Below, one piece after another: positions 8,930 through 27,588 of a stretch of 64,000 bases of DNA. Positions within the stretch are counted from its first letter, which is position 1, and every line of letters begins with the position of its first letter. The translations under genes were made by a program, and so were the position numbers. The DNA comes from Candidatus Latescibacterota bacterium (GTDB lineage Bacteria > Latescibacterota > UBA2968 > UBA8231), in NCBI GenBank assembly GCA_965200315.1, contig OZ241362.1:3488001-3552000 (forward strand), in the 5' to 3' direction. The notes beneath the pieces are model-generated. The model ran no database searches and was not told the DNA's origin. It saw only the letters and a list, made by a program, of their open reading frames with translations.

Positions 8930-11302
8930 ATGCACAAGGTGGTCTATATGTCGATCTTGGCGACCTTGTTGGTCGTCTGCCCGCTAGCAGCCCAGACGGA
9001 GGCCAGCCTAAGTGGCGCAGTAACCGACGAGACTACTGGCGAGCCGCTGTTCGGGGCCACTATTCGCCTCGTGGGGACCTTGCTGGGGACCTCTACGAAT
9101 ATGAACGGTCAGTTTACATTGCCTATCGTGCCTCCGGGTGCCTATCAAGTGGAAATCAGTCTCATCGGTTATTCTACCTTCACCGATACCGTGCGGGTAG
9201 CCCCTAAAGAGAAGGCCCGCTTGGTCGTCGCCCTGACCCCCAGCCCCTTGCACATGGGCGAAATGCTGATTCATGGCGAACGGGCCTTCTCGGCGGCTTC
9301 CTCGCGGGCCGTGCGCCAATTCGACCTGCACATCCGGCCCAATCGCACGGCCCATCAGATGTTGCAACTCATGCCAGGGCTCATCATTGCCCAGCACGCT
9401 GGCGGCGGTAAAGCCGAACAGATCTTTCTACGCGGCTTTGACGCCGACCACGGCACCGATGTGGCCATTTCGGTGGATGGGGTGCCCGTGAATATGGTCT
9501 CCCACGGCCACGGGCAAGGCTACGCCGACCTGCACTTCCTCATTCCCCAAGTAGTCGAGAGTTTGGACGTCAAGAAAGGGCCGTACTTCGCCAAATTTGG
9601 CAATCTGGCTACGGCCGGGGCCATCGCCTATCACACCCGCGACCATCTCGACAACAATGCCATTCATCTCGAAGGAGGAGGTTTCAATACGGCCCAGTAC
9701 ACCATGCTCTATCAGATTCCGCTGGCCGGTCCCGAGCAAAGTGCCTATTTCGCCGGCAAGTACTATCGCACCGACGGCCCGGTCGAGCAGCCTCAGGGCC
9801 TACAGCGACTCAACATCTTCGGCAAGTACCATACTCGTCTTTCCGATCAAGCCATCCTCACCCTGACCACCAGCGGGTTCAGTTCGGCTTGGAACGCCTC
9901 TGGGCAGGTCCCCCAACGGGCAATAGACGAGGGCCTCATCAACCGCTGGGGGGCTATTGACGATTTGGAAGGTGGCATCACCGGCCGCCAAGATGTCCAA
10001 GTCAACTTCCACGTCCAAGGGACGGACCACAGTGACTTCAACCTACAGGCGTACTGGGTCAACTATCAGTTCAAACTGTTCTCCAATTTCACCTTCTTCC
10101 TCGATGATCCCGAGCGCGGCGACACCATCGAACAGACCGATGCCCGCCGGGTCGCCGGGATCAACAGCGACTATACCTTCCACCACGACTGGGGGCCCCT
10201 AGCCCATACCACCATAGGGGGCGGCCTGCGCACCGATAATGCAGCCGTGGGTTTGTGGAAAAGCCCCGATCGCCAACGCCTCGCCCCTCTGGTCGAGGCC
10301 GATGTTGTGGAGCGCAACCTGTTTTTGTGGGCCCAAGAGGAGATTGTCCTCACCCCGCGCCTGCAACTGGTGCTGGGCCTACGCGGCGATTATTTCACCT
10401 TCAATGTCGACGACCATCTCGAAGGGCACTCCACCGACTTGCCTCACGCTTCGGGCTTTGCCCAAGCCTCCATACTCAGCCCGAAAGCGTCCCTAGTGTA
10501 TAGCCCTATCCACGCCCTAGACCTTTTTGCCAATTTTGGCACCGGGTTTCACTCCAACGACGCCCGCAACAACGTCATCGACGCCCGCGCCTCGCAGATT
10601 CGTCGGGCCATACAGCGCGATGGGCGCAGCGAGGCCGATGTTGCCGCCGAGTTAGCAGAGTGGAACATCGATCCGGGACACCTCGAAGAAGGGACCTTAC
10701 CTCGGGCTGTGGGGGCCGAAACCGGCCTTCGGACCCGCTTGTTCGACCGGTTGACTTTGGGGGCGGCTCTGTGGTGGATGGACTTGGAGAGCGAATTCGT
10801 ATTTGTCGGCGATGCCGGCACCACCGAAGCCAGCGGAAAAACTCGGCGGTCGGGGCTGGATCTAGAAGCCCGTCTCCAACTGTGCTCTTGGCTGTGGGTT
10901 GATACCGACCTCAATTTTTCCCGAGGTAAGGCGGTGGACGAACCCGATGGTGCCGATAAAATTCCGCTGGCTCCCAACGGAACCTCTACTGGCGGCTTGA
11001 CTTGGCACCACCCCAATGGCTTGGAAGGCAGCTTGCGCTACCGCCATATCGACGATCGGCCCGCCAACGAGGATGGCAGTGTCACGGCTACGGGCTACAC
11101 TGTAGTCGATTTCAGCGGTGCCTATCAGCGAGGGGTTTGGCGGTTTAATTTGGGCGTAGAGAACGTGCTCAACACGACGTGGAACGAAGCGCAATTCGAC
11201 ACCGAATCGCGCCTGCGGGACGAAAAGGAACCTGTTTCCGAGATCCACTTCACCCCGGGAAACCCTATCAATATGCGGCTGGGGGTGAGTTTGCTGTTTT
11301 AA
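8930..11302 (+). CDS. TonB-dependent receptor with N-terminal carboxypeptidase-regulatory-like domain
   Basis: Signal peptide; GAVTDETTGEPLFGATI domain; plug QHAGGGKAEQIFLRGFDADHGTD; GVENVLN; C-terminal Phe; AGGAG SD. Confidence 0.92.
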   Translation: MHKVVYMSILATLLVVCPLAAQTEASLSGAVTDETTGEPLFGATIRLVGTLLGTSTNMNGQFTLPIVPPGAYQVEISLIGYSTFTDTVRVAPKEKARLVVALTPSPLHMGEMLIHGERAFSAASSRAVRQFDLHIRPNRTAHQMLQLMPGLIIAQHAGGGKAEQIFLRGFDADHGTDVAISVDGVPVNMVSHGHGQGYADLHFLIPQVVESLDVKKGPYFAKFGNLATAGAIAYHTRDHLDNNAIHLEGGGFNTAQYTMLYQIPLAGPEQSAYFAGKYYRTDGPVEQPQGLQRLNIFGKYHTRLSDQAILTLTTSGFSSAWNASGQVPQRAIDEGLINRWGAIDDLEGGITGRQDVQVNFHVQGTDHSDFNLQAYWVNYQFKLFSNFTFFLDDPERGDTIEQTDARRVAGINSDYTFHHDWGPLAHTTIGGGLRTDNAAVGLWKSPDRQRLAPLVEADVVERNLFLWAQEEIVLTPRLQLVLGLRGDYFTFNVDDHLEGHSTDLPHASGFAQASILSPKASLVYSPIHALDLFANFGTGFHSNDARNNVIDARASQIRRAIQRDGRSEADVAAELAEWNIDPGHLEEGTLPRAVGAETGLRTRLFDRLTLGAALWWMDLESEFVFVGDAGTTEASGKTRRSGLDLEARLQLCSWLWVDTDLNFSRGKAVDEPDGADKIPLAPNGTSTGGLTWHHPNGLEGSLRYRHIDDRPANEDGSVTATGYTVVDFSGAYQRGVWRFNLGVENVLNTTWNEAQFDTESRLRDEKEPVSEIHFTPGNPINMRLGVSLLF

Positions 11303-12068
11303 GAAGCGGTCTGAACGGGGCTCTCCAACATCAAAGTGCTTTAGTATCGTCTTTATCGCTTCAATGCTGTTATCTACACCTATCCAGTTGCGTTGCATTT
11401 CGTCTGCAACAGCAAGGGTTGTCCCAGAACCAGCAAAACAGTCAAGCACCATATCACCAGGATTAGAAGAAGCAGCAATAATTCTTCTAACTAATCCTGG
11501 ATTCTTTTCAGTTGGGTAGCCAGTAATTTTTATATTCTGGTTATGTGCATCGCCGAACTCCAACCATATATCCTGAACACCAACGCCCGGGTGTTTGTCG
11601 AGATAAACCTTTCTTCTTGGATTTCCGTTCTTCGACCAGCATATTTCTCCTCTCGCGTCCATTTCATCCAGCATTTCAGGCGTGTACTGCCAGTGTTTGC
11701 CTGGGGGAGGCATTTTATTCCTCCATGGCTTACCAGTTTTTCCCTTGCGCGTTCCCGGAGCATGAACAGGGACTTTCATATACTTCCGCCCAGTGCCCTC
11801 TTCGAAGTACTGGTATTCTTTTTTGCTGTCTACAGATAACGGAACAGTTTGTTTATTCCAGATATAATTATCTGTTTTGGTATAGAAGAGTACGAAATCT
11901 GCGATGTTGCCGTATGTTTTTCGCGTATAGTTTTTAGGATTACATTTCTTCCGAACAATTATATTTCTGTAGTTTTCTGATCCAAATACTTCATCCATGA
12001 TGAGTTTCATTTCAAAAATCATTTTTTCATCTAAGGGCATTGTCTTTTTTGGGGATACCGATTGCCAT
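11303..12068 (-). pseudogene. Site-specific DNA methyltransferase relic (type II, M.EcaI/BstEII-like by recollection)
   Basis: Start MAIGIPKK (ATG 12068) is joined out of frame to LDEKMIFEMKLIMDEVFG; YPTEKN and VLDCFAGSGTT are present; the catalytic DPP(Y/F) region is missing; low GC. Confidence 0.8.
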
Positions 12069-12080
12069 ATCTAATACCCT

Positions 12081-12735
12081 TTAGGAGTGTAACCAGTCCA
12101 TAGTGATACGCTCAGAGAACATTCTGAGTGTTACGACTTTCACTCTCCCAAGCCATGAATCTTCAATATAGGCGTAATCGCTTCACATTGAACCAAGAAG
12201 TAAACCTGGGCCATCGTTTAAGAATATCACTTTCACGTCTATGCCTTTTGATTCAGCATACCCGAGGATTTCACTTGCACAATCTCGATACTGACCTGTT
12301 CTATCGTCTTCTTGTGTTCCACCTCGATCAGAATCATAACGGGCCAAACCTATGGCGATTGGGTTGCCGTCGCTGAGCAATACAAAATCGACTGGACGTC
12401 CGGTTTGGGATAGTTTTCAAAAATTTCGCCAAGGGGCACGTCTTTTCCGGCACACTCTGGCCCAATAATATCAAGTTCAGAATATCCCTCTCGGATTATT
12501 GCGAATAAACGTTCTGTCAGGTCATACCCCTTCTCGCCGCGAACCTTATATTCCCAAAGAATAGCGCATAATGCCTCATCGGGCATGGGACGCGATTGGA
12601 ATGCCGACTGCACTTCGTTAATTGCACGAAAGCCTTTGCCAAACTGGTCGCATATATTTTGAGCCGCAGATTTCTTCTTCAGCATTTCTACTGGAGTTTT
12701 CGGGCTTACATATTTCCTAAATACTCGGCATAACT
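12081..12735 (-). pseudogene. Restriction endonuclease relic adjacent to the MTase
   Basis: LCRVFRKYVSP...LWEYKVRGEKGYDLT, a frame change near 12385, ARYDSDRGGTQEDDRTG, premature TGA at 12183 (GSM*SDY), natural stop 12081. Confidence 0.65.
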
Positions 12736-18164: not shown

Positions 18165-19034
18165 ATGGAAGACTATTCGCACATTCAGAAGCCAGACTTG
18201 GGCTATCGCTATGAGTTTGCCACCGACGAGCTCGACGCGATGGACAAATGCTTGGAGGCGCATGGCTTCGCGATAATTAAAGACGTACTGCCGCCGGAGA
18301 TCGTCGCCCGGCTCAAGCAGGCGGTGTGGGACGGCACGGACCCAGAGCGCACGTTGCAGCCGGGCGAAAGCCGCACGCGGCACGCTTGGATCGAGTCCGG
18401 CCCGGGTGCTTGGGAGGTGCTCGACTACGCGCCCTTCATGGACATTCACCGGCACCTGATCGGCACCGACGAGTTGACGATTCACCGCTCGGCTGCCATC
18501 ATCCGCCTGACCGGTTCCGCTCCGGTAGGGTGGCATACTGATTGGTGCGGCTATTCGACTGAGATCAAGCACTCGGGCGATGTGCTCAATCGCGGGTTGT
18601 GGCCGTCGGGTAAATGGTTTTACCTGACCGGTTCGCGGCCCGAGCACGGCGGCCTGTGCGTCATTGAGGATTCTCACGTTGAAAATTGGGAGGGGCCGGA
18701 GGGATTTTGCCTGACGGCCGACCGGCGCTCCTTCTACCCAGAAGGCACGGAGGAACGCAGCTACAACGGCTTCGACATCCCCGGCCTCGTCCCCCTTTTC
18801 ACCAATGGCGGCGACATGATCGTCTTCGCCCATCGCACGTATCACGGCGCGTTCCCCAACCGCACCGAAGAGACACGCCTCTCCTGCGGCATCGGCTTCC
18901 GCGCCCGCAGTCACCGCATCGACATCCCCTGGGAAATCCCCGAGGAAGGCCAGCGGTTTTTGGCCAACCTACCCGATCACTTGCGCCGCTATACGGATGG
19001 GTACACGAGCATCAATTTGGCGTGGCAGGGGTAG
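18165..19034 (+). CDS. PhyH/phytanoyl-CoA dioxygenase family protein
   Basis: HGFAIIKDVL, WHTD, GGLCVIEDSH, GDMIVFAHRTYHG; AAGGAGG SD. Confidence 0.85.
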   Translation: MEDYSHIQKPDLGYRYEFATDELDAMDKCLEAHGFAIIKDVLPPEIVARLKQAVWDGTDPERTLQPGESRTRHAWIESGPGAWEVLDYAPFMDIHRHLIGTDELTIHRSAAIIRLTGSAPVGWHTDWCGYSTEIKHSGDVLNRGLWPSGKWFYLTGSRPEHGGLCVIEDSHVENWEGPEGFCLTADRRSFYPEGTEERSYNGFDIPGLVPLFTNGGDMIVFAHRTYHGAFPNRTEETRLSCGIGFRARSHRIDIPWEIPEEGQRFLANLPDHLRRYTDGYTSINLAWQG

Positions 19035-19070
19035 GGACAATTCCATAAGCAAACCAAAGACAGCAAGCGA

Positions 19071-19106
19071 AGGCCCCGGTAGTATTTCTACTATCGGGGC
19101 TTTTTT
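19071..19106 (+). terminator. Rho-independent terminator
   Basis: GCCCCGGTAGTA-loop-TACTATCGGGGC followed by T6. Confidence 0.85.
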
Positions 19107-19166
19107 AATTTTCGTCTAGCTGTGTCTCACCCATGTTGGGAGTTGTTGAGACGGAGAAATTTTTAA

Positions 19167-19196
19167 TTGACAAGGGAGAAATATCCCTTTTATTAT
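19167..19196 (+). promoter_or_regulatory. Near-consensus sigma70 promoter with an operator-like inverted repeat in the spacer
   Basis: TTGACA-18 bp-TATTAT; AAGGGA (19172-77)/TCCCTT (19184-89). Confidence 0.65.
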
Positions 19197-19200
19197 TTTT

Positions 19201-19334
19201 TGTCTCCATTAAGCGTAGTGCCCGCTCTGTCGGGTCACTTGCTGAATAAAATAGCCTTTCTTCGGCACAGGGGTGGCTCCCTGGCGCCCGGCAAATAGGC
19301 AGGACTTCTCACTTCACTACGCGAGATGGAGACA
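19201..19334 (+). ncRNA. Candidate structured RNA or 5' leader of unknown family
   Basis: The two ends pair over 17 Watson-Crick bp: TGTCTCCAT/ATGGAGACA and GCGTAGTG/CACTACGC; three inner hairpins; begins at the predicted TSS. Confidence 0.5.
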
Positions 19335-19392
19335 TGGCCTGGCACCCTGCGAGGTCAGTGGCTCCTTATACCCTATTCTTGTGGAGGGAAGT

Positions 19393-19542
19393 ATGGAAGT
19401 TCTGACCAAAAGTTATCTCCCATATAATATCTCTCAAGTGGGTCAGAGCATCTGGAAACGAGGGTATCTCTTCGTCAAAAAATGCTTGACGCCAAAGGGC
19501 CAACGGGGTTTTACACAACGCTTCTTACGGGGGGTGACATGA
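19393..19542 (+). CDS. Candidate 49-aa basic leader peptide
   Basis: GGAGGG SD; MEVLTKSYLPYNISQVGQSIWKRGYLFVKKCLTPKGQRGFTQRFLRGVT; ATGA overlap with next ORF. Confidence 0.4.
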   Translation: MEVLTKSYLPYNISQVGQSIWKRGYLFVKKCLTPKGQRGFTQRFLRGVT

Positions 19543-19652
19543 GATGGTTTTTCATCTTTATCGGTACGTCCTTTATCGTGGTATTAATCGGTTTTCTTTA
19601 TAGTAAAATTGCCTCACGTCTCCTTAATAAGAAGTACAAAAAAAATGAATAG
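19539..19652 (+). CDS. Candidate 37-aa single-TM membrane peptide with basic tail
   Basis: MRWFFIFIGTSFIVVLIGFLYSKIASRLLNKKYKKNE; ATGA coupling; G-rich SD-like sequence. Confidence 0.55.
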   Translation: MRWFFIFIGTSFIVVLIGFLYSKIASRLLNKKYKKNE

Positions 19653-19740
19653 AAGGTCAATTCCCAGTTTCATCTATAACCTCTTATCCTTTTGTATCAT
19701 GTGGTAAGCCCGCACTCACCATTTCTCTAGGAGTAATCCC

Positions 19741-20874
19741 ATGGCTAAAAATAAGGCTTCGGATGATTTGCAATTTGAACCTGATCTTGGAGGTTACGAA
19801 AAAGCGTTCGAGGAATCTTTTACAAGAGAAAACGAGAAGTTTGAGGAAATCAAGAGGCAAAAATTAATTATATCAATGTACGGTAGTGTGAATAGTGGAA
19901 AATCTACCACTATCAATGCTCTTACTGGCCGCAAACTGGCCGATGTAAAGGCTGTAGCAGGTTGGACTAAAGAGATTCGGTTGTATGAATTCAGCCGAAA
20001 TGTCTATATCACCGATACACCTGGACTAGATGATGTCAACGAGGAGAATAGTGCCCGAGCACAAGAATTTGTCGAAAAGGATACAGATATCATCCTTTTC
20101 TTTTTTAACGCCAGTGTCGGTGCTTCAAAGTCCACAGTTGATGCTTATAAAGAATTACAGAAACTCGGGAAACCAATCATTCCCGTGCTGAACAAGATTG
20201 ATTCACTCACCTTTGATGAACGGGAGGAAGTGGCGGAAGATATAAAAAACAGGACGGGTGCTCGGGTTGTGTCTATCTCCGCTCGCGACAATAGCGGCAT
20301 TGACGTTTTAAACCGAAAAATAGTGGAAATGCTGGAGTCTGTGGGAAAGGAATTACTCTACCTAAAAATCTCAAAATATAAAGACGAACAAGTAGATATA
20401 TGGATAATGGGCGCAGCAACCACTGCTGCAGGCCTTGGTGCAATTCCCGTACCGGGTGCAGATATACTCCCATTAACTACGCTGCAAGTTGGTCTTGCAC
20501 TAAAGATAGCGCATGTATATGAATGCGAAGTGACTAAAAAGGATGTGATGCAATTGGTCGCCGCTACAGTAACGGGAGGGCTTGGGCGACAAGTTTATCG
20601 TTGGGGCATTCAAGGCTTGAAAGGGTTGGGGTGGCTTGGAGGACCTATTGGTGGAGGAGCTGTTATGGCTTTAGCCGCCAGCGTTGCGGCATCGGTCACT
20701 TATGGCTTTGGCCAGACGTGTAAGGCATATTACAAAAGCGGAATGGCGTTTGATTTAGATGAAGCTGGTGAGATGTTCAAAAAATATGCCGCCGTTGCCC
20801 TTTCAACTCTCCGCCTCGACGAGGGGTTAGCGGCGGCCCTACGCGCACTTTTGTCGCTTAAAAATAAATCCTAA
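19741..20874 (+). CDS. Era/HSR1-like GTPase fused to a DUF697-like hydrophobic domain
   Basis: G1 GSVNSGKST, G2 GWT, G3 DTPG, G4 NKID, G5 SA; AAGLGAIPVPGADILPLTTLQ plus Gly-rich hydrophobic helices; AGGAG SD; low GC. Confidence 0.85.
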   Translation: MAKNKASDDLQFEPDLGGYEKAFEESFTRENEKFEEIKRQKLIISMYGSVNSGKSTTINALTGRKLADVKAVAGWTKEIRLYEFSRNVYITDTPGLDDVNEENSARAQEFVEKDTDIILFFFNASVGASKSTVDAYKELQKLGKPIIPVLNKIDSLTFDEREEVAEDIKNRTGARVVSISARDNSGIDVLNRKIVEMLESVGKELLYLKISKYKDEQVDIWIMGAATTAAGLGAIPVPGADILPLTTLQVGLALKIAHVYECEVTKKDVMQLVAATVTGGLGRQVYRWGIQGLKGLGWLGGPIGGGAVMALAASVAASVTYGFGQTCKAYYKSGMAFDLDEAGEMFKKYAAVALSTLRLDEGLAAALRALLSLKNKS

Positions 20875-20937
20875 GCGTTGAAGTGCATTTTGGGCTTTCT
20901 GCGACGAGATGCCAGAGGGAATTTTAGGATTAGGCAA
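20839..20937 (-). pseudogene. hicA: Truncated HicA toxin
   Basis: TTG start overlaps the HicB stop; MPNPKIPSGISSQKAQNALQRLGFIFKRQK breaks off where GSH is expected. Confidence 0.65.
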
Positions 20938-21127
20938 GGTGCAACTCTCTCTGATGGCTTTCTGTAACTTCTTCTAAGTAGAGAGATACGGCTTCTTTGA
21001 GATTGTTAAAAGCCTCTTCCTCATCCTTGCCTTGGCTGGCTATTCCGATCTGAGGACAATGAGATACGTACAGTCCTTTTTTCTCTTTATAGATTTCAGC
21101 CGTTAGGATTGTTCCTTGTTTCGACAT
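20930..21127 (-). CDS. hicB: HicB family antitoxin (short form)
   Basis: YVSHCPQIGIASQGKDEEEAFNNLKEAVSLYLE; AAGGAG SD. Confidence 0.85.
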   Translation of the reverse strand: MSKQGTILTAEIYKEKKGLYVSHCPQIGIASQGKDEEEAFNNLKEAVSLYLEEVTESHQRELHLA

Positions 21128-21353
21128 AAGCAACTCCTTTCTTTGGGATAAGTAATTAGAACAGACTTCACCCGGCGACTCCATAGGGAGGGTGGGGTTG
21201 GGCGAATTTAGAAGGTGCTCTTTTCCTTAGCAAGTTGGGCCATTTTTCCCTTGGCAAAACCCGTGCCAAAAGCGCGGTTTTTTCGTACTAGCCCACTACC
21301 CGAGTTTTGCGTTGCGTGGGATGGATGTAGCCTGCGTAATAAGCTGACCAGAG

Positions 21354-22190
21354 CTAATCCTCGCGGCGCGGCCGGACCACAGTTTCACCGTCCGGTTCGA
21401 TGAGGGGATGGTGGTAGATGTAAGGCGGCTCGAGTACCGCCTGTTGCGCCTCGGTCAATTCCGCCACCCATGCTGGCTGCGCGACCTCGTACGTACCGCC
21501 GTCGTAGTGCAGGTACTTTGGCGTGTACCGATAGAGCAGGGCGCGGCGGTCGTGGTCCGCCTGCCACGGCAGGGTGCCGTGCAAGGTGTTCTCGCTAAAG
21601 ATGACCATGTCGCCGGCCTTCAGGGGCACTTGGTAAACGACCTCTTGGTGCTCTTCCCAAGTGGTGATTTTTGGAGGGCAGGAAAAGTTCGCCTTATGGC
21701 TGCCCGGAATGACGCAGAGGCCGCCGTCACCGGGGTTTTGGTCGTGCAGCGTGTACTGGACGACGAGCAGGCCACAGCGCATCTGGCCGTTGGAGTACGC
21801 GTAGAAGCGGGAGCCATTGAAGAGGACGTTGGTGGTGCCGTGGATGCGCAGGCCCTCGATCCCCTTGGAACCGGTGATCATAAACGGCTCGTGGTCGAGC
21901 TTCCAGCCGCGTCCGTGTAGGGTGTCGAGGTAAGGCAGGAGTTTGCGGTGTGCAAGCAGGTCGCGGAAGGGCTGGCAATGGGGCTGCTCCCAAGTGAGCA
22001 TGCCGGTGAAAATGCTGCGCTTGTTCAGCCCGGCCATGTTGCCGCTGGGATCGCCGATTGGGTCTTCGCGGCACTGGTCCCGGTTGGCGTCGAAAGCGTC
22101 GTTGAGTGCTTTGACTTCGCCCGGCGAGAGAAACCCGCGGACGACGATGAAGCCCTGCAAGTCGAAGAGAAATTTTTCAGTGTCGTTCAC
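21354..22190 (-). CDS. PhyH/phytanoyl-CoA dioxygenase family protein
   Basis: FLFDLQGFIVV, GGLCVIPGSHK, AGDMVIFSENTLHG. Confidence 0.88.
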   Translation of the reverse strand: MNDTEKFLFDLQGFIVVRGFLSPGEVKALNDAFDANRDQCREDPIGDPSGNMAGLNKRSIFTGMLTWEQPHCQPFRDLLAHRKLLPYLDTLHGRGWKLDHEPFMITGSKGIEGLRIHGTTNVLFNGSRFYAYSNGQMRCGLLVVQYTLHDQNPGDGGLCVIPGSHKANFSCPPKITTWEEHQEVVYQVPLKAGDMVIFSENTLHGTLPWQADHDRRALLYRYTPKYLHYDGGTYEVAQPAWVAELTEAQQAVLEPPYIYHHPLIEPDGETVVRPRRED

Positions 22191-26932: not shown

Positions 26933-27201
26933 GCGATGACTACGGCACTGGTATGATTCGATTTATTCATTTTTCTGGATTAGAGATAAGCAAAAGATCG
27001 GGCACTGCTGCTCGGGTCGCATAGGGGTTTTGGGTACTCGTTTAATGACCCTCCGAATAAGCCATTTTCGTTGACGATGGGAGTTTTTCTCGTTAGAGTA
27101 CTAATTAACAAATGGCAGGTTTCGGGATGTCGGATTGTCTCTTGGCAAATTCCCGCCGTGCTCATCTGATCTTGGATTGTTGGAAGGCACAGGAGAAACG
27201 T

Positions 27202-27414
27202 ATGAAGTCAATAGACTCCTTCAAAATAGATAAGAGCGTCCTTTCAATTGTATCCCTTTCTGAAGCATCAGACGAAAGGGAATACTGGCACTCGAAAACG
27301 CCGCATGAACGCCTGGAATCCATTGAATTGATGCGGCAAATTAACTATGGCTATGATCCAACTACCACCCGACTTCAAAGAGTTCTTGAAGTTGCTCAAC
27401 TCACATCGAGTTGA
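27202..27414 (+). CDS. Small hypothetical protein of the type found upstream of nucleotidyltransferases (antitoxin-like)
   Basis: AGGAG SD; EYWHSKTPHERLESIELMRQINYGY...RLQRVLEV; overlaps the next gene. Confidence 0.65.
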   Translation: MKSIDSFKIDKSVLSIVSLSEASDEREYWHSKTPHERLESIELMRQINYGYDPTTTRLQRVLEVAQLTSS

Positions 27415-27588
27415 GTATCTGCTCTTTTGACGACAATATCAGGTGTTGGTTTTGACGCTTGTTATTCAGAACGAATTGTTGATGTGATTGATAATGTCGA
27501 AGTTCACATTATCAATCTGAAACATTTGAAGCAGAACAAGCAAGCGAGTGGCAGGCATAAAGATTTGGATGACTTACAGTACCTTTGA
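27347..27588 (+). pseudogene. Nucleotidyltransferase with central deletion
   Basis: LPPDFKEFLKLLNSHRVEYLL joined out of frame to LTTISGVGFDACY...LKQNKQASGRHKDLDDL; the GG..DxD segment is absent. Confidence 0.7.

Follow-up and report, generated by a model that had tools for sequence, protein, structure and literature searches.

In a 64,000-nucleotide (nt) stretch of contig OZ241362.1 from a Candidatus Latescibacterota bacterium, hereafter the window, a locus was identified that joins two conserved and unexplained units. The first is a promoter with a structured RNA, here named R1, of an expanded promoter-leader family resembling sRNA-Xcc1. The second is a cassette encoding a small membrane peptide and a GTPase with a DUF697-type tail. 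The locus is probably a recent mosaic insertion in which the two units, of separate origin, were brought together. Separate origins are indicated because the DNA homology to other GTPase loci starts only at 19524 or 19547, and because the relatives of R1 precede other genes. All coordinates are window positions. The comparisons covered 61 genomes of the family, 132 of the class and 151 of the phylum, together with metagenome collections; codes denote compared genomes (G), GTPase or R1 loci (L) and RNA-library runs (X).

A first-pass annotation of the same DNA had proposed an RNA-regulated, membrane-acting GTPase module at 19167-20874. All the features that it listed were found in place, and the promoter, the RNA, the transmembrane micro-ORF (ORF, open reading frame) and the GTPase do lie in one orientation on an acquired insertion, but the single module was not upheld.

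A mosaic insertion in the hicBA locus

The features that define the insertion site are as follows.

19069-19104, + strand: intrinsic terminator of the upstream PhyH gene, 16-pair stem and T run, resident DNA
19106-20849, + strand: inserted low-GC (guanine plus cytosine) mosaic segment of ~1.74 kb, missing from congeners
20850-20937, - strand: hicA relic, N-terminal ~29 codons kept and remainder replaced, compared with the intact hicA of G007
20930-21127, - strand: hicB-like antitoxin gene, intact, 65 amino acids (aa) from the ATG at 21127, with a 65-aa homologue in G007

In the same-genus genomes G001, G002, G003, G006, G012, G014 and others the two PhyH flanks of the site abut, so that window position 19032 is found next to 21344, and in G007 and G008 the site is occupied by hicB-hicA alone. 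Homology to G007 extends up to 19105, resumes at 20850-21137 and continues from 21334. Contigs from X19, an RNA run of another study, diverge from the window after 19113 and carry a G007-type hicA sequence that reaches 20850 with a loose end. The limits of the insertion were set at approximately 19106-20849 on the basis of these breaks in G007 homology and the divergence of the X19 contigs. The GC content of the island is 0.39-0.49 against ~0.62 in the flanks (19000-21500 profiled), in agreement with the low-GC island of the first-pass annotation. The strong terminator that had been placed upstream is real, but it belongs to the PhyH gene; a homologous hairpin is kept in congener G007 and the terminator lies outside the insertion.

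The 3′ half of the hicA toxin gene was replaced by the insertion. The window hicA ends after ...GFIFKRQ at 20850, the G007 gene is whole, and the last 25 nt of the GTPase ORF, about its last eight codons and the stop, are antisense hicA. The hicBA relic had thus been recognised correctly, with hicB whole and hicA reduced to its N-terminal part; no intact hicA toxin stands beside hicB in the window, as a HicAB toxin-antitoxin pair would have. The hicB-like protein gave weak Pfam matches to DUF7387 and HicB_lk_antitox, both below cut-off (HicB-like E 0.008). No convincing terminal inverted or direct repeats were found at the insertion ends, and a 15-nt inverted match between 19159-19173 and 20851-20865 may be due to chance. 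The ~197 bp upstream of hicB (21138-21333) have no counterpart in G007, where hicB abuts the flank.

The R1 promoter-leader family

The R1 unit of the window consists of the following elements.

19167-19196, + strand: sigma-70-type promoter of the R1 unit, TTGACA-18-TATTAT, score 11/12, expected start ~19201-19204
19201-19365, + strand: R1 structured RNA, 122.5 bits with the R1 covariance model
19201-19220 / 19315-19334, + strand: R1 long stem, ~20 bp, covarying
19229-19237 / 19335-19343, + strand: R1 helix P1, sRNA-Xcc1-like
19240-19245 / 19296-19301, + strand: R1 helix P2a
19254-19256 / 19290-19292, + strand: R1 helix P2b
19268-19283, + strand: hairpin inserted in R1

Promoter-like sites are not in excess in the region as a whole, where 2 were found against 3.0 +/- 1.4 in shuffled sequences. 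The window promoter is made more credible by the related RNA copies: 29 of 36 have a TANNNT box at the same place, 3-11 nt before the first stem pair, and 23 of the 36 a TTGACA-like box in addition. The first-pass promoter call was confirmed by its 11/12 score and by this shared layout. Since a promoter lies directly upstream in most R1 copies, promoter and RNA form one portable unit, in which transcription would begin at the foot of the long stem.

The 134-nt self-closing RNA described earlier (19201-19334) folds with a minimum free energy (MFE) of -59.6 kcal/mol (z = -3.55), a value reached by 2 of 200 shuffled sequences, and proved to be one copy of the multi-copy R1 family. The core of the family reads GUCGGGUCAcyUGCUGAAUAAAAUAGCC ... 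GGGGUAGCUCCC ... CCyGGCrAAUAGGCAG ... GGCCCGGCaCCC. Copies were detected by DNA search in 12 of the 61 family genomes. With a covariance model built from 16 copies, six sites were found in the window's own genome and ~250 in the class genomes (~730 Mb), where R1 is present in 71 of 132 and reaches 14 copies per genome. It occurs in 61 of the 151 phylum genomes, with just one family outside the class. The segment 19150-19325 shares 89% identity with an R1 copy of congener G080 that stands ahead of another gene.

In an alignment of 47 distinct R1 sequences, 92.4% of the cells in helices were paired (P1 95.5%, P2a 96.2%, P2b 99.3%), with double changes, and the covariation was reached by none of 500 shuffles, in an alignment that had been fitted to the model. 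In an independent MAFFT alignment the model structure paired 79.7% of positions as compared with 73.1% for an MFE-type nesting. The long stem is a duplex of the 5′ flank of R1 with its own variable region. Cognate duplexes had a mean energy of -31.9 kcal/mol versus -19.5 +/- 5.0 for non-cognate ones, and the cognate strand was the best partner in 22 of 36 copies. This stem takes up the 3′ half of a would-be P3 hairpin, and the 3′ hairpin of R1 shares bases with the 3′ strand of P1 in most of 14 folded copies. Such a layout suggests either two states, one with the long stem and the 3′ hairpin and the other with P1 and a local P3 hairpin, or a pseudoknot. As a two-state cis-acting leader, R1 would control the expression of its downstream genes.

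The ORFs behind R1 are diverse, and their start codons often lie 30-45 nt past the element. After de-duplication, a hydrophobic segment at the N terminus was seen in 17 of 32 such ORFs, as compared with 19.5% of the 1,984 ORFs of this genome that served as controls, and by this sequence measure R1 would mostly stand ahead of genes for exported or membrane proteins. Together with the element's own promoter and its two covarying long-range pairings, the hundreds of copies ahead of envelope-protein genes point to a cis-acting leader. A reading of the R1 inverted repeat as attC or as a miniature inverted-repeat transposable element was ruled out, as the stem covaries and the copies carry a promoter. 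No tRNA or tmRNA was found, and the R1 core motif was absent from the viral contigs searched. Among the records returned by a literature search on Latescibacter and riboswitches, no title or abstract opening concerned R1.

The nearest described RNA is sRNA-Xcc1 (RF02221) from integron cassettes of Xanthomonas campestris, so far regarded as a trans-acting small RNA. Both RNAs have a 9-bp GC-rich P1 (GUCGGG... / ...CCCGGC) followed by ACCC, a P2 interrupted by an internal loop AAUA(A/C)AAUA / (G/A)AAUA, and a place on mobile DNA immediately ahead of a gene. The structural hallmark of RF02221, a P1 closing helix with a P2 bearing the AAUAcAAUA / GAAUA internal loop, is thus present in R1. R1 differs in a P2 enlarged by ~32 nt that include an additional hairpin, in the ~20-bp long stem between its 5′ extension and the P3 region, in its own promoter ~30 nt further upstream and in an extra 3′ hairpin. 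According to the excerpted text of the sources, mapping of sRNA-Xcc1 gave a discrete RNA of 88 nt (PMC2996969), and it stands ahead of symE in Xanthomonas cassettes (10.1101/2025.06.18.660453) and precedes an ORF6N gene in phages of the APSE type (10.1101/2020.03.17.996009). At the window locus, by comparison, RNA-library contigs run on for ~400 nt; as assembled sequences they show no RNA ends.

By score R1 falls outside RF02221, staying below the gathering score of 53 bits everywhere tested. The window RNA had no Rfam match at E <= 1, and none to RF02221 even at E <= 10. On eleven relatives a single match was obtained, an end-to-end alignment of 28.1 bits to a second copy in L052, and on the 61 family genomes there was none above the cut-off, the best being 33.7 bits at site L081. 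This site is also matched by the R1 model (49.9 bits), and its recognition by both models argues for distant homology between R1 and sRNA-Xcc1. The features of R1 make the mechanism of the sRNA-Xcc1 family open to testing.

The peptide and GTPase-DUF697 cassette

Between R1 and the end of the insertion the following features were distinguished.

19273-19542, + strand: 89-aa ORF (49 aa from an internal ATG at 19394), unsupported as a gene
19430-19502, + strand: copy of a dispersed ~70-nt non-coding motif, 73-75% alike, hairpin and GCTTGACGCCAAGG-like box
19539-19652 (longer reading from 19482), + strand: gene of a 37-aa peptide with one membrane pass (MRWFFIFIG...), conserved alongside the GTPase
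19609-19707, + strand: 32-aa ORF overlapping the 3′ end of the peptide gene, unsupported as a gene
19653-19740, + strand: 88-nt spacer between peptide and GTPase, TATAAC/TATAAT box at 19675-19680 and ribosome-binding site AGGAG at 19729-19733
19741-20874, + strand: GTPase-DUF697 gene, 377 aa, G domain at aa ~42-185 and helical hydrophobic domain to aa ~356

When compared by blastn with 23 GTPase loci, DNA homology to those of Latescibacterota was confined to 19524/19547 to 20778/20788, a span that runs from the peptide ORF through the spacer into the GTPase gene and leaves out only the last ~27 codons of that gene. Identity was 72.6-78.7% over the full span in L010-L013 and L021, and L015 aligned in two pieces.

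The GTPase matched MMR_HSR1 (PF01926) with 63.6 bits against a cut-off of 21.9, and its tail scored 25.8 bits for DUF697 (PF05128; E 1e-5), just under the gathering score of 27.7. Most of its relatives carry a precomputed PF05128 match, and Atlas features gave 0.91 to DUF697 clusters. The motifs GSVNSGKS (G1), DTPG (G3) and NKID (G4), as expected of the Era/EngA type, are invariant in 28 relatives. A structure model with a predicted local distance difference test score of 81 displayed the G domain, a 47-residue helix and the helical hydrophobic domain. In a fold search solved relatives were found for the G domain only, the best being Era, MnmE and EngB. Matches to the folds of IRG, mitofusin and IniA, with root-mean-square deviations of 13-22 Å, were uninformative on the tail. 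The MMR_HSR1 score and the fold search bear out the Era-like GTPase of the first-pass annotation, and its hydrophobic tail is DUF697-like by the Atlas features and the sub-threshold Pfam score.

NCBIfam likewise gave G-domain matches only. With PADLOC, LeoBC (E 8e-16) and LeoA (E 2e-14) were matched by residues 29-169 of the GTPase, covering ~130 positions of profiles of 559-601 positions. These partial G-domain matches leave the earlier statement standing that no named system can be assigned. A full-text literature search on DUF697 returned a listing in which no work on its function was seen.

A large protein search yielded 162 relatives of the GTPase with 45-77% identity, distributed patchily across phyla. 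The best (75-77% identical) come from Latescibacterota, and others from Clostridium, Neobacillus, Flavobacterium, Chryseobacterium, Caldilineaceae, cyanobacteria and more. In Latescibacterota hosts the GC content of the gene is below that of its surroundings. Within the class the GTPase was present in 8 of 132 genomes. The cassette is probably spread by horizontal transfer and would serve as an accessory conflict or membrane-stress system, not a housekeeping one. In congener G081 a degraded cassette (L015/L130) was observed, with the peptide intact and the GTPase without its first ~118 residues, which hold G1-G3.

In 15 of 34 loci, and in L128 in addition, the GTPase is preceded by a peptide of 33-59 aa with a single membrane pass. 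This peptide was present in all loci of the Latescibacterota class, in five of Caldilineae type, in Clostridium (L016), and in L064 and L073, and was not found in the GTPase loci of Flavobacteriia, Neobacillus and cyanobacteria. In L019, L032 and L067, where no peptide was found, a DUF1232 membrane protein lies upstream instead. Gly18 and Tyr21 are invariant in 12 aligned peptides, forming a G-x-x-Y motif at the membrane edge. Nucleotide differences among the peptide genes fall mostly in the third codon position, as between the window and L010 (6, 8 and 22 in the first, second and third). The peptide would anchor or partner the DUF697 domain in the membrane, and GTP binding and hydrolysis would gate the engagement of that domain with the membrane or the peptide. 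When the peptide was modelled in complex with GTPase residues 186-356, the score was 0.04 (mark 0.32), which is no evidence either way.

The three overlapping small ORFs that had been described all exist, but only the 37-aa transmembrane peptide is supported as a gene. The stop of the 89-aa ORF overlaps the ATG of the peptide (ATGA). This ORF had no match in Pfam, NCBIfam or PADLOC, its tblastn matches were confined to the overlap with the R1 RNA, and the frame is lost in L045. The 32-aa ORF was matched in the closest DNA relative only (L015/L130), and lengths and ends vary among relatives. The 168 bases between the R1 unit and the cassette (19371-19538) are a patchwork, with protein relatives only at the R1 overlap. 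The motif copy within it (19430-19502) is not a tRNA. Elsewhere the dispersed motif consists of an imperfect hairpin followed by a AAAAACGCTTGACGCCAAGG-like sequence and is present in congeners in several copies per genome, with three in G005 and two in G013 (loci L120-L122, near position 1500). The spacer's TATAAC/TATAAT box and AGGAG site are conserved in relatives, and from its sequence the box is a possible internal promoter.

Homology of the GTPase to its relatives stops at 20778-20788, and the last ~27 codons derive from the junction, with antisense hicA at their end. This, together with a peptide gene whose ribosome-binding site has been replaced by a G-run and the patchwork at 19371-19538, would suit a window copy that is a decaying, non-functional remnant of transfer. 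Such decay is highly improbable, as all 44 columns that are invariant in 28 GTPase sequences are kept in the window protein, the ORF is open to its stop, the tail past aa ~350 is variable among the relatives too, and RNA-library contigs cover parts of the gene.

The genes around the cassette were sampled by choosing 183 neighbouring ORFs, of which 101 were scanned against Pfam. GmrSD was found near the cassette in L016, L025, L026 and L027, WYL regulators in L022, L023 and L031, BrnT/BrnA in L030 and L070, and an IS240 transposase in L018. AbiEii or DUF6088 also occurred among the neighbours, and those of L011 were HEPN/RES, RadC and HIRAN. As to the defence-island neighbourhood that was to be looked for around the homologs, by these domain matches the neighbours would be mostly defence, toxin-antitoxin or mobile genes. 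In the excerpted text of PMC9137128, a standalone DUF697 gene lies among toxin-antitoxin genes of a mobile-element amplicon in oral Treponema.

In the loci of family f2 (L124-L126 and L129), a gene of 96-98 aa with an HTH_3 domain (HigA-like) overlaps the 3′ end of the GTPase gene by ~60 nt. An ORF of 116-182 aa upstream of the peptide in this family was considered as GIY-YIG-like, a label that was dropped, as it had no Pfam match at E <= 1e-6. In L019 and L032 a second MMR_HSR1 GTPase follows the GTPase-DUF697 gene, and L019 and L067 have a RecD-like helicase. The GTPase-DUF697 loci of Flavobacteriia may represent a larger multi-gene system.

Two further low-GC patches were noticed in the window. 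The first (10862-12400, GC 0.42-0.43) holds a minus-strand ORF with a DNA-methyltransferase-like motif (FAGSGTT...), which overlaps the end of a neighbouring TonB-type receptor ORF. It resembles a further insertion of foreign DNA and may be what is left of a restriction-modification system. The second (27000-27500, GC 0.44) lies between two ABC-transporter genes and contains a 100-aa ORF at 27112-27414.

Linkage of R1 to the cassette and comparison with known systems

In the 41 GTPase loci from other genomes and metagenomes, R1 was present once, in L011, where ~1.25 kb with a 226-aa ORF separate it from the GTPase downstream. The single co-evolved module of the first-pass annotation was not sustained by this count and by the presence of R1 ahead of many unrelated genes. 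Regarding the RNA or peptide that might be conserved upstream of homologous GTPases, the peptide was confirmed and the RNA was not, except in 3 of the 8 class genomes that carry the GTPase. The genes between R1 and the GTPase differ among the window, G032 and G118. By a rough arithmetic, R1 stands upstream of the GTPase in these genomes far more often than chance would give, and with the differing intervening genes this suggests that the cassette was placed behind the R1 leader more than once, as were many genes for membrane proteins. In the window it would be expressed from a borrowed leader.

In G118 (locus L128, G118:C146, 26-1404) the order is DUF1232, R1, a 36-aa lipoprotein-like ORF, the transmembrane peptide and the GTPase. 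In L052/L111, too, DUF1232 is found with an R1 copy, there behind it, and as described above it directly precedes the GTPase in three loci, so that DUF1232, R1 and the GTPase appear as a recurring trio.

The window stretch is represented in two metatranscriptome runs of one study (X5 and X7). These data are assembled contigs, silent on RNA ends, strand and level, and DNA may be present in RNA libraries. An X5 contig (19230-19591) and an X7 contig (19238-19641) bridge the R1 core and the peptide ORF, which weakly suggests that transcription passes from R1 into the peptide gene. The GTPase gene is covered in part (19677-20359 in X5 and 19812-20078 in X7), at a contig depth below that of 19230-19641, and no contig of either run covers 19104-19204. 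The loose-end letters at 19230 in X5 and 19238 in X7 resemble sequencing adapter and may mark an RNA end where the sRNA-Xcc1-like core begins.

One integrated, RNA-regulated module, in which the leader and a coupled ORF gate a toxic membrane peptide with the GTPase as effector or modulator, would account for the bridging contigs, for R1 upstream of the cassette in three of eight class genomes and for the ATGA overlap, which recurs in G118 between the 36-aa ORF and the peptide. It would also agree with the lack of a terminator-like site on the + strand at 19190-19741. It is nevertheless an improbable reading. R1 is missing from 40 of the 41 other GTPase loci and precedes many unrelated genes, and the 89/49-aa upstream ORF is unconserved. 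The peptides of the relatives have their own strong ribosome-binding site (GAGGAG or AGGAGG) without an overlapping ORF, and no promoter-like site was found on the minus strand opposite 19200-19740, where an antisense to the peptide would start. Moreover, the peptide always travels with the GTPase and never alone.

Several observations weigh against the mosaic insertion of two separate units and the roles proposed for them. The two units are not wholly independent: in three of the eight class genomes (the window, G032 = L011 and G118) a same-strand R1 copy is found no more than ~1.6 kb ahead of the GTPase, a co-occurrence that by a rough arithmetic from R1 density is far above chance. The contigs begin inside R1, at 19230 and 19238, instead of at the predicted start. 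No bases are shared by the long stem and P1, so that they may coexist in a pseudoknot instead of switching, and the enrichment of exported or membrane proteins behind R1 (binomial p 2e-5) was obtained with a crude hydropathy rule on related genomes. As to the cassette, the DUF697 score of the window protein is under the Pfam cut-off, PADLOC has no model for a peptide-GTPase cassette, no GTPase relatives were found on viral contigs, and ordinary metabolic genes flank the cassette in L010, L012, L013 and L021. A bolder version, in which R1 is a class-wide signal-sensing switch, a pseudoknotted descendant of sRNA-Xcc1 over an exported/membrane regulon, and the cassette a membrane-acting anti-phage or addiction system, appears unlikely.

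Two analogies, to hok/mok-type type I loci and to phage P1 c4-icd-ant, had been drawn from the start, and among the features tested only the ATGA overlap speaks for them. As in hok/mok, a short hydrophobic peptide with one membrane pass is encoded after a long folded leader, and a reading frame upstream overlaps its gene. The locus differs in that the peptide is conserved with a GTPase across phyla and the leader is generic to many genes. No antisense RNA gene was detected and the overlapping ORF is unconserved, which places the locus outside this class.

The dynamin-like defence GTPases (Eleos LeoA/LeoBC, IniA and BDLP) resemble the window protein as membrane-associated GTPases in defence-like neighbourhoods. 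The window protein differs from them as one short chain of 377 aa without a stalk or paddle. Membership in Eleos is not indicated, since the profile matches are partial and a second dynamin-like gene is absent from the island.

YcjX-YcjF of E. coli, in which a P-loop nucleoside triphosphatase is tied to a DUF697 domain with a link to membrane stress, is by this comparison the closest functional analogue of the cassette. In the excerpted text of the respective reports, 32 of 81 operon structures have ycjX-ycjF as part of a psp operon or adjoining one (PMC3041696), and phiX174 infection induces the pair (PMC8125068), in line with its link to the Psp response. The window GTPase is of the Era/EngA-type MMR_HSR1 family and not, as YcjX is, of DUF463, and it is fused to its DUF697 domain, not adjacent to it; the cassette has an added small transmembrane peptide and a sporadic, horizontal instead of vertical distribution. 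These likenesses, and the DUF1232 membrane protein upstream in L019, L032 and L067, would be in keeping with a housekeeping-type membrane-stress factor, a fused YcjX/YcjF analogue with incidental defence neighbours. We consider this improbable, given the restriction of the cassette to 8 of 132 class genomes, its patchy spread across phyla at 45-77% identity, its GC content below that of the host in Latescibacterota loci, its insertion into a toxin-antitoxin locus in the window and the loss of the G1-G3 region in the G081 copy. A horizontally acquired accessory cassette, joined in the window to an R1 unit of other origin, is the reading we prefer. GTPase-DUF697 proteins are widespread and unstudied, and the conserved peptide and the defence and toxin-antitoxin setting provide a starting point for the role of DUF697, which extends to the YcjX-YcjF pair of E. 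coli.

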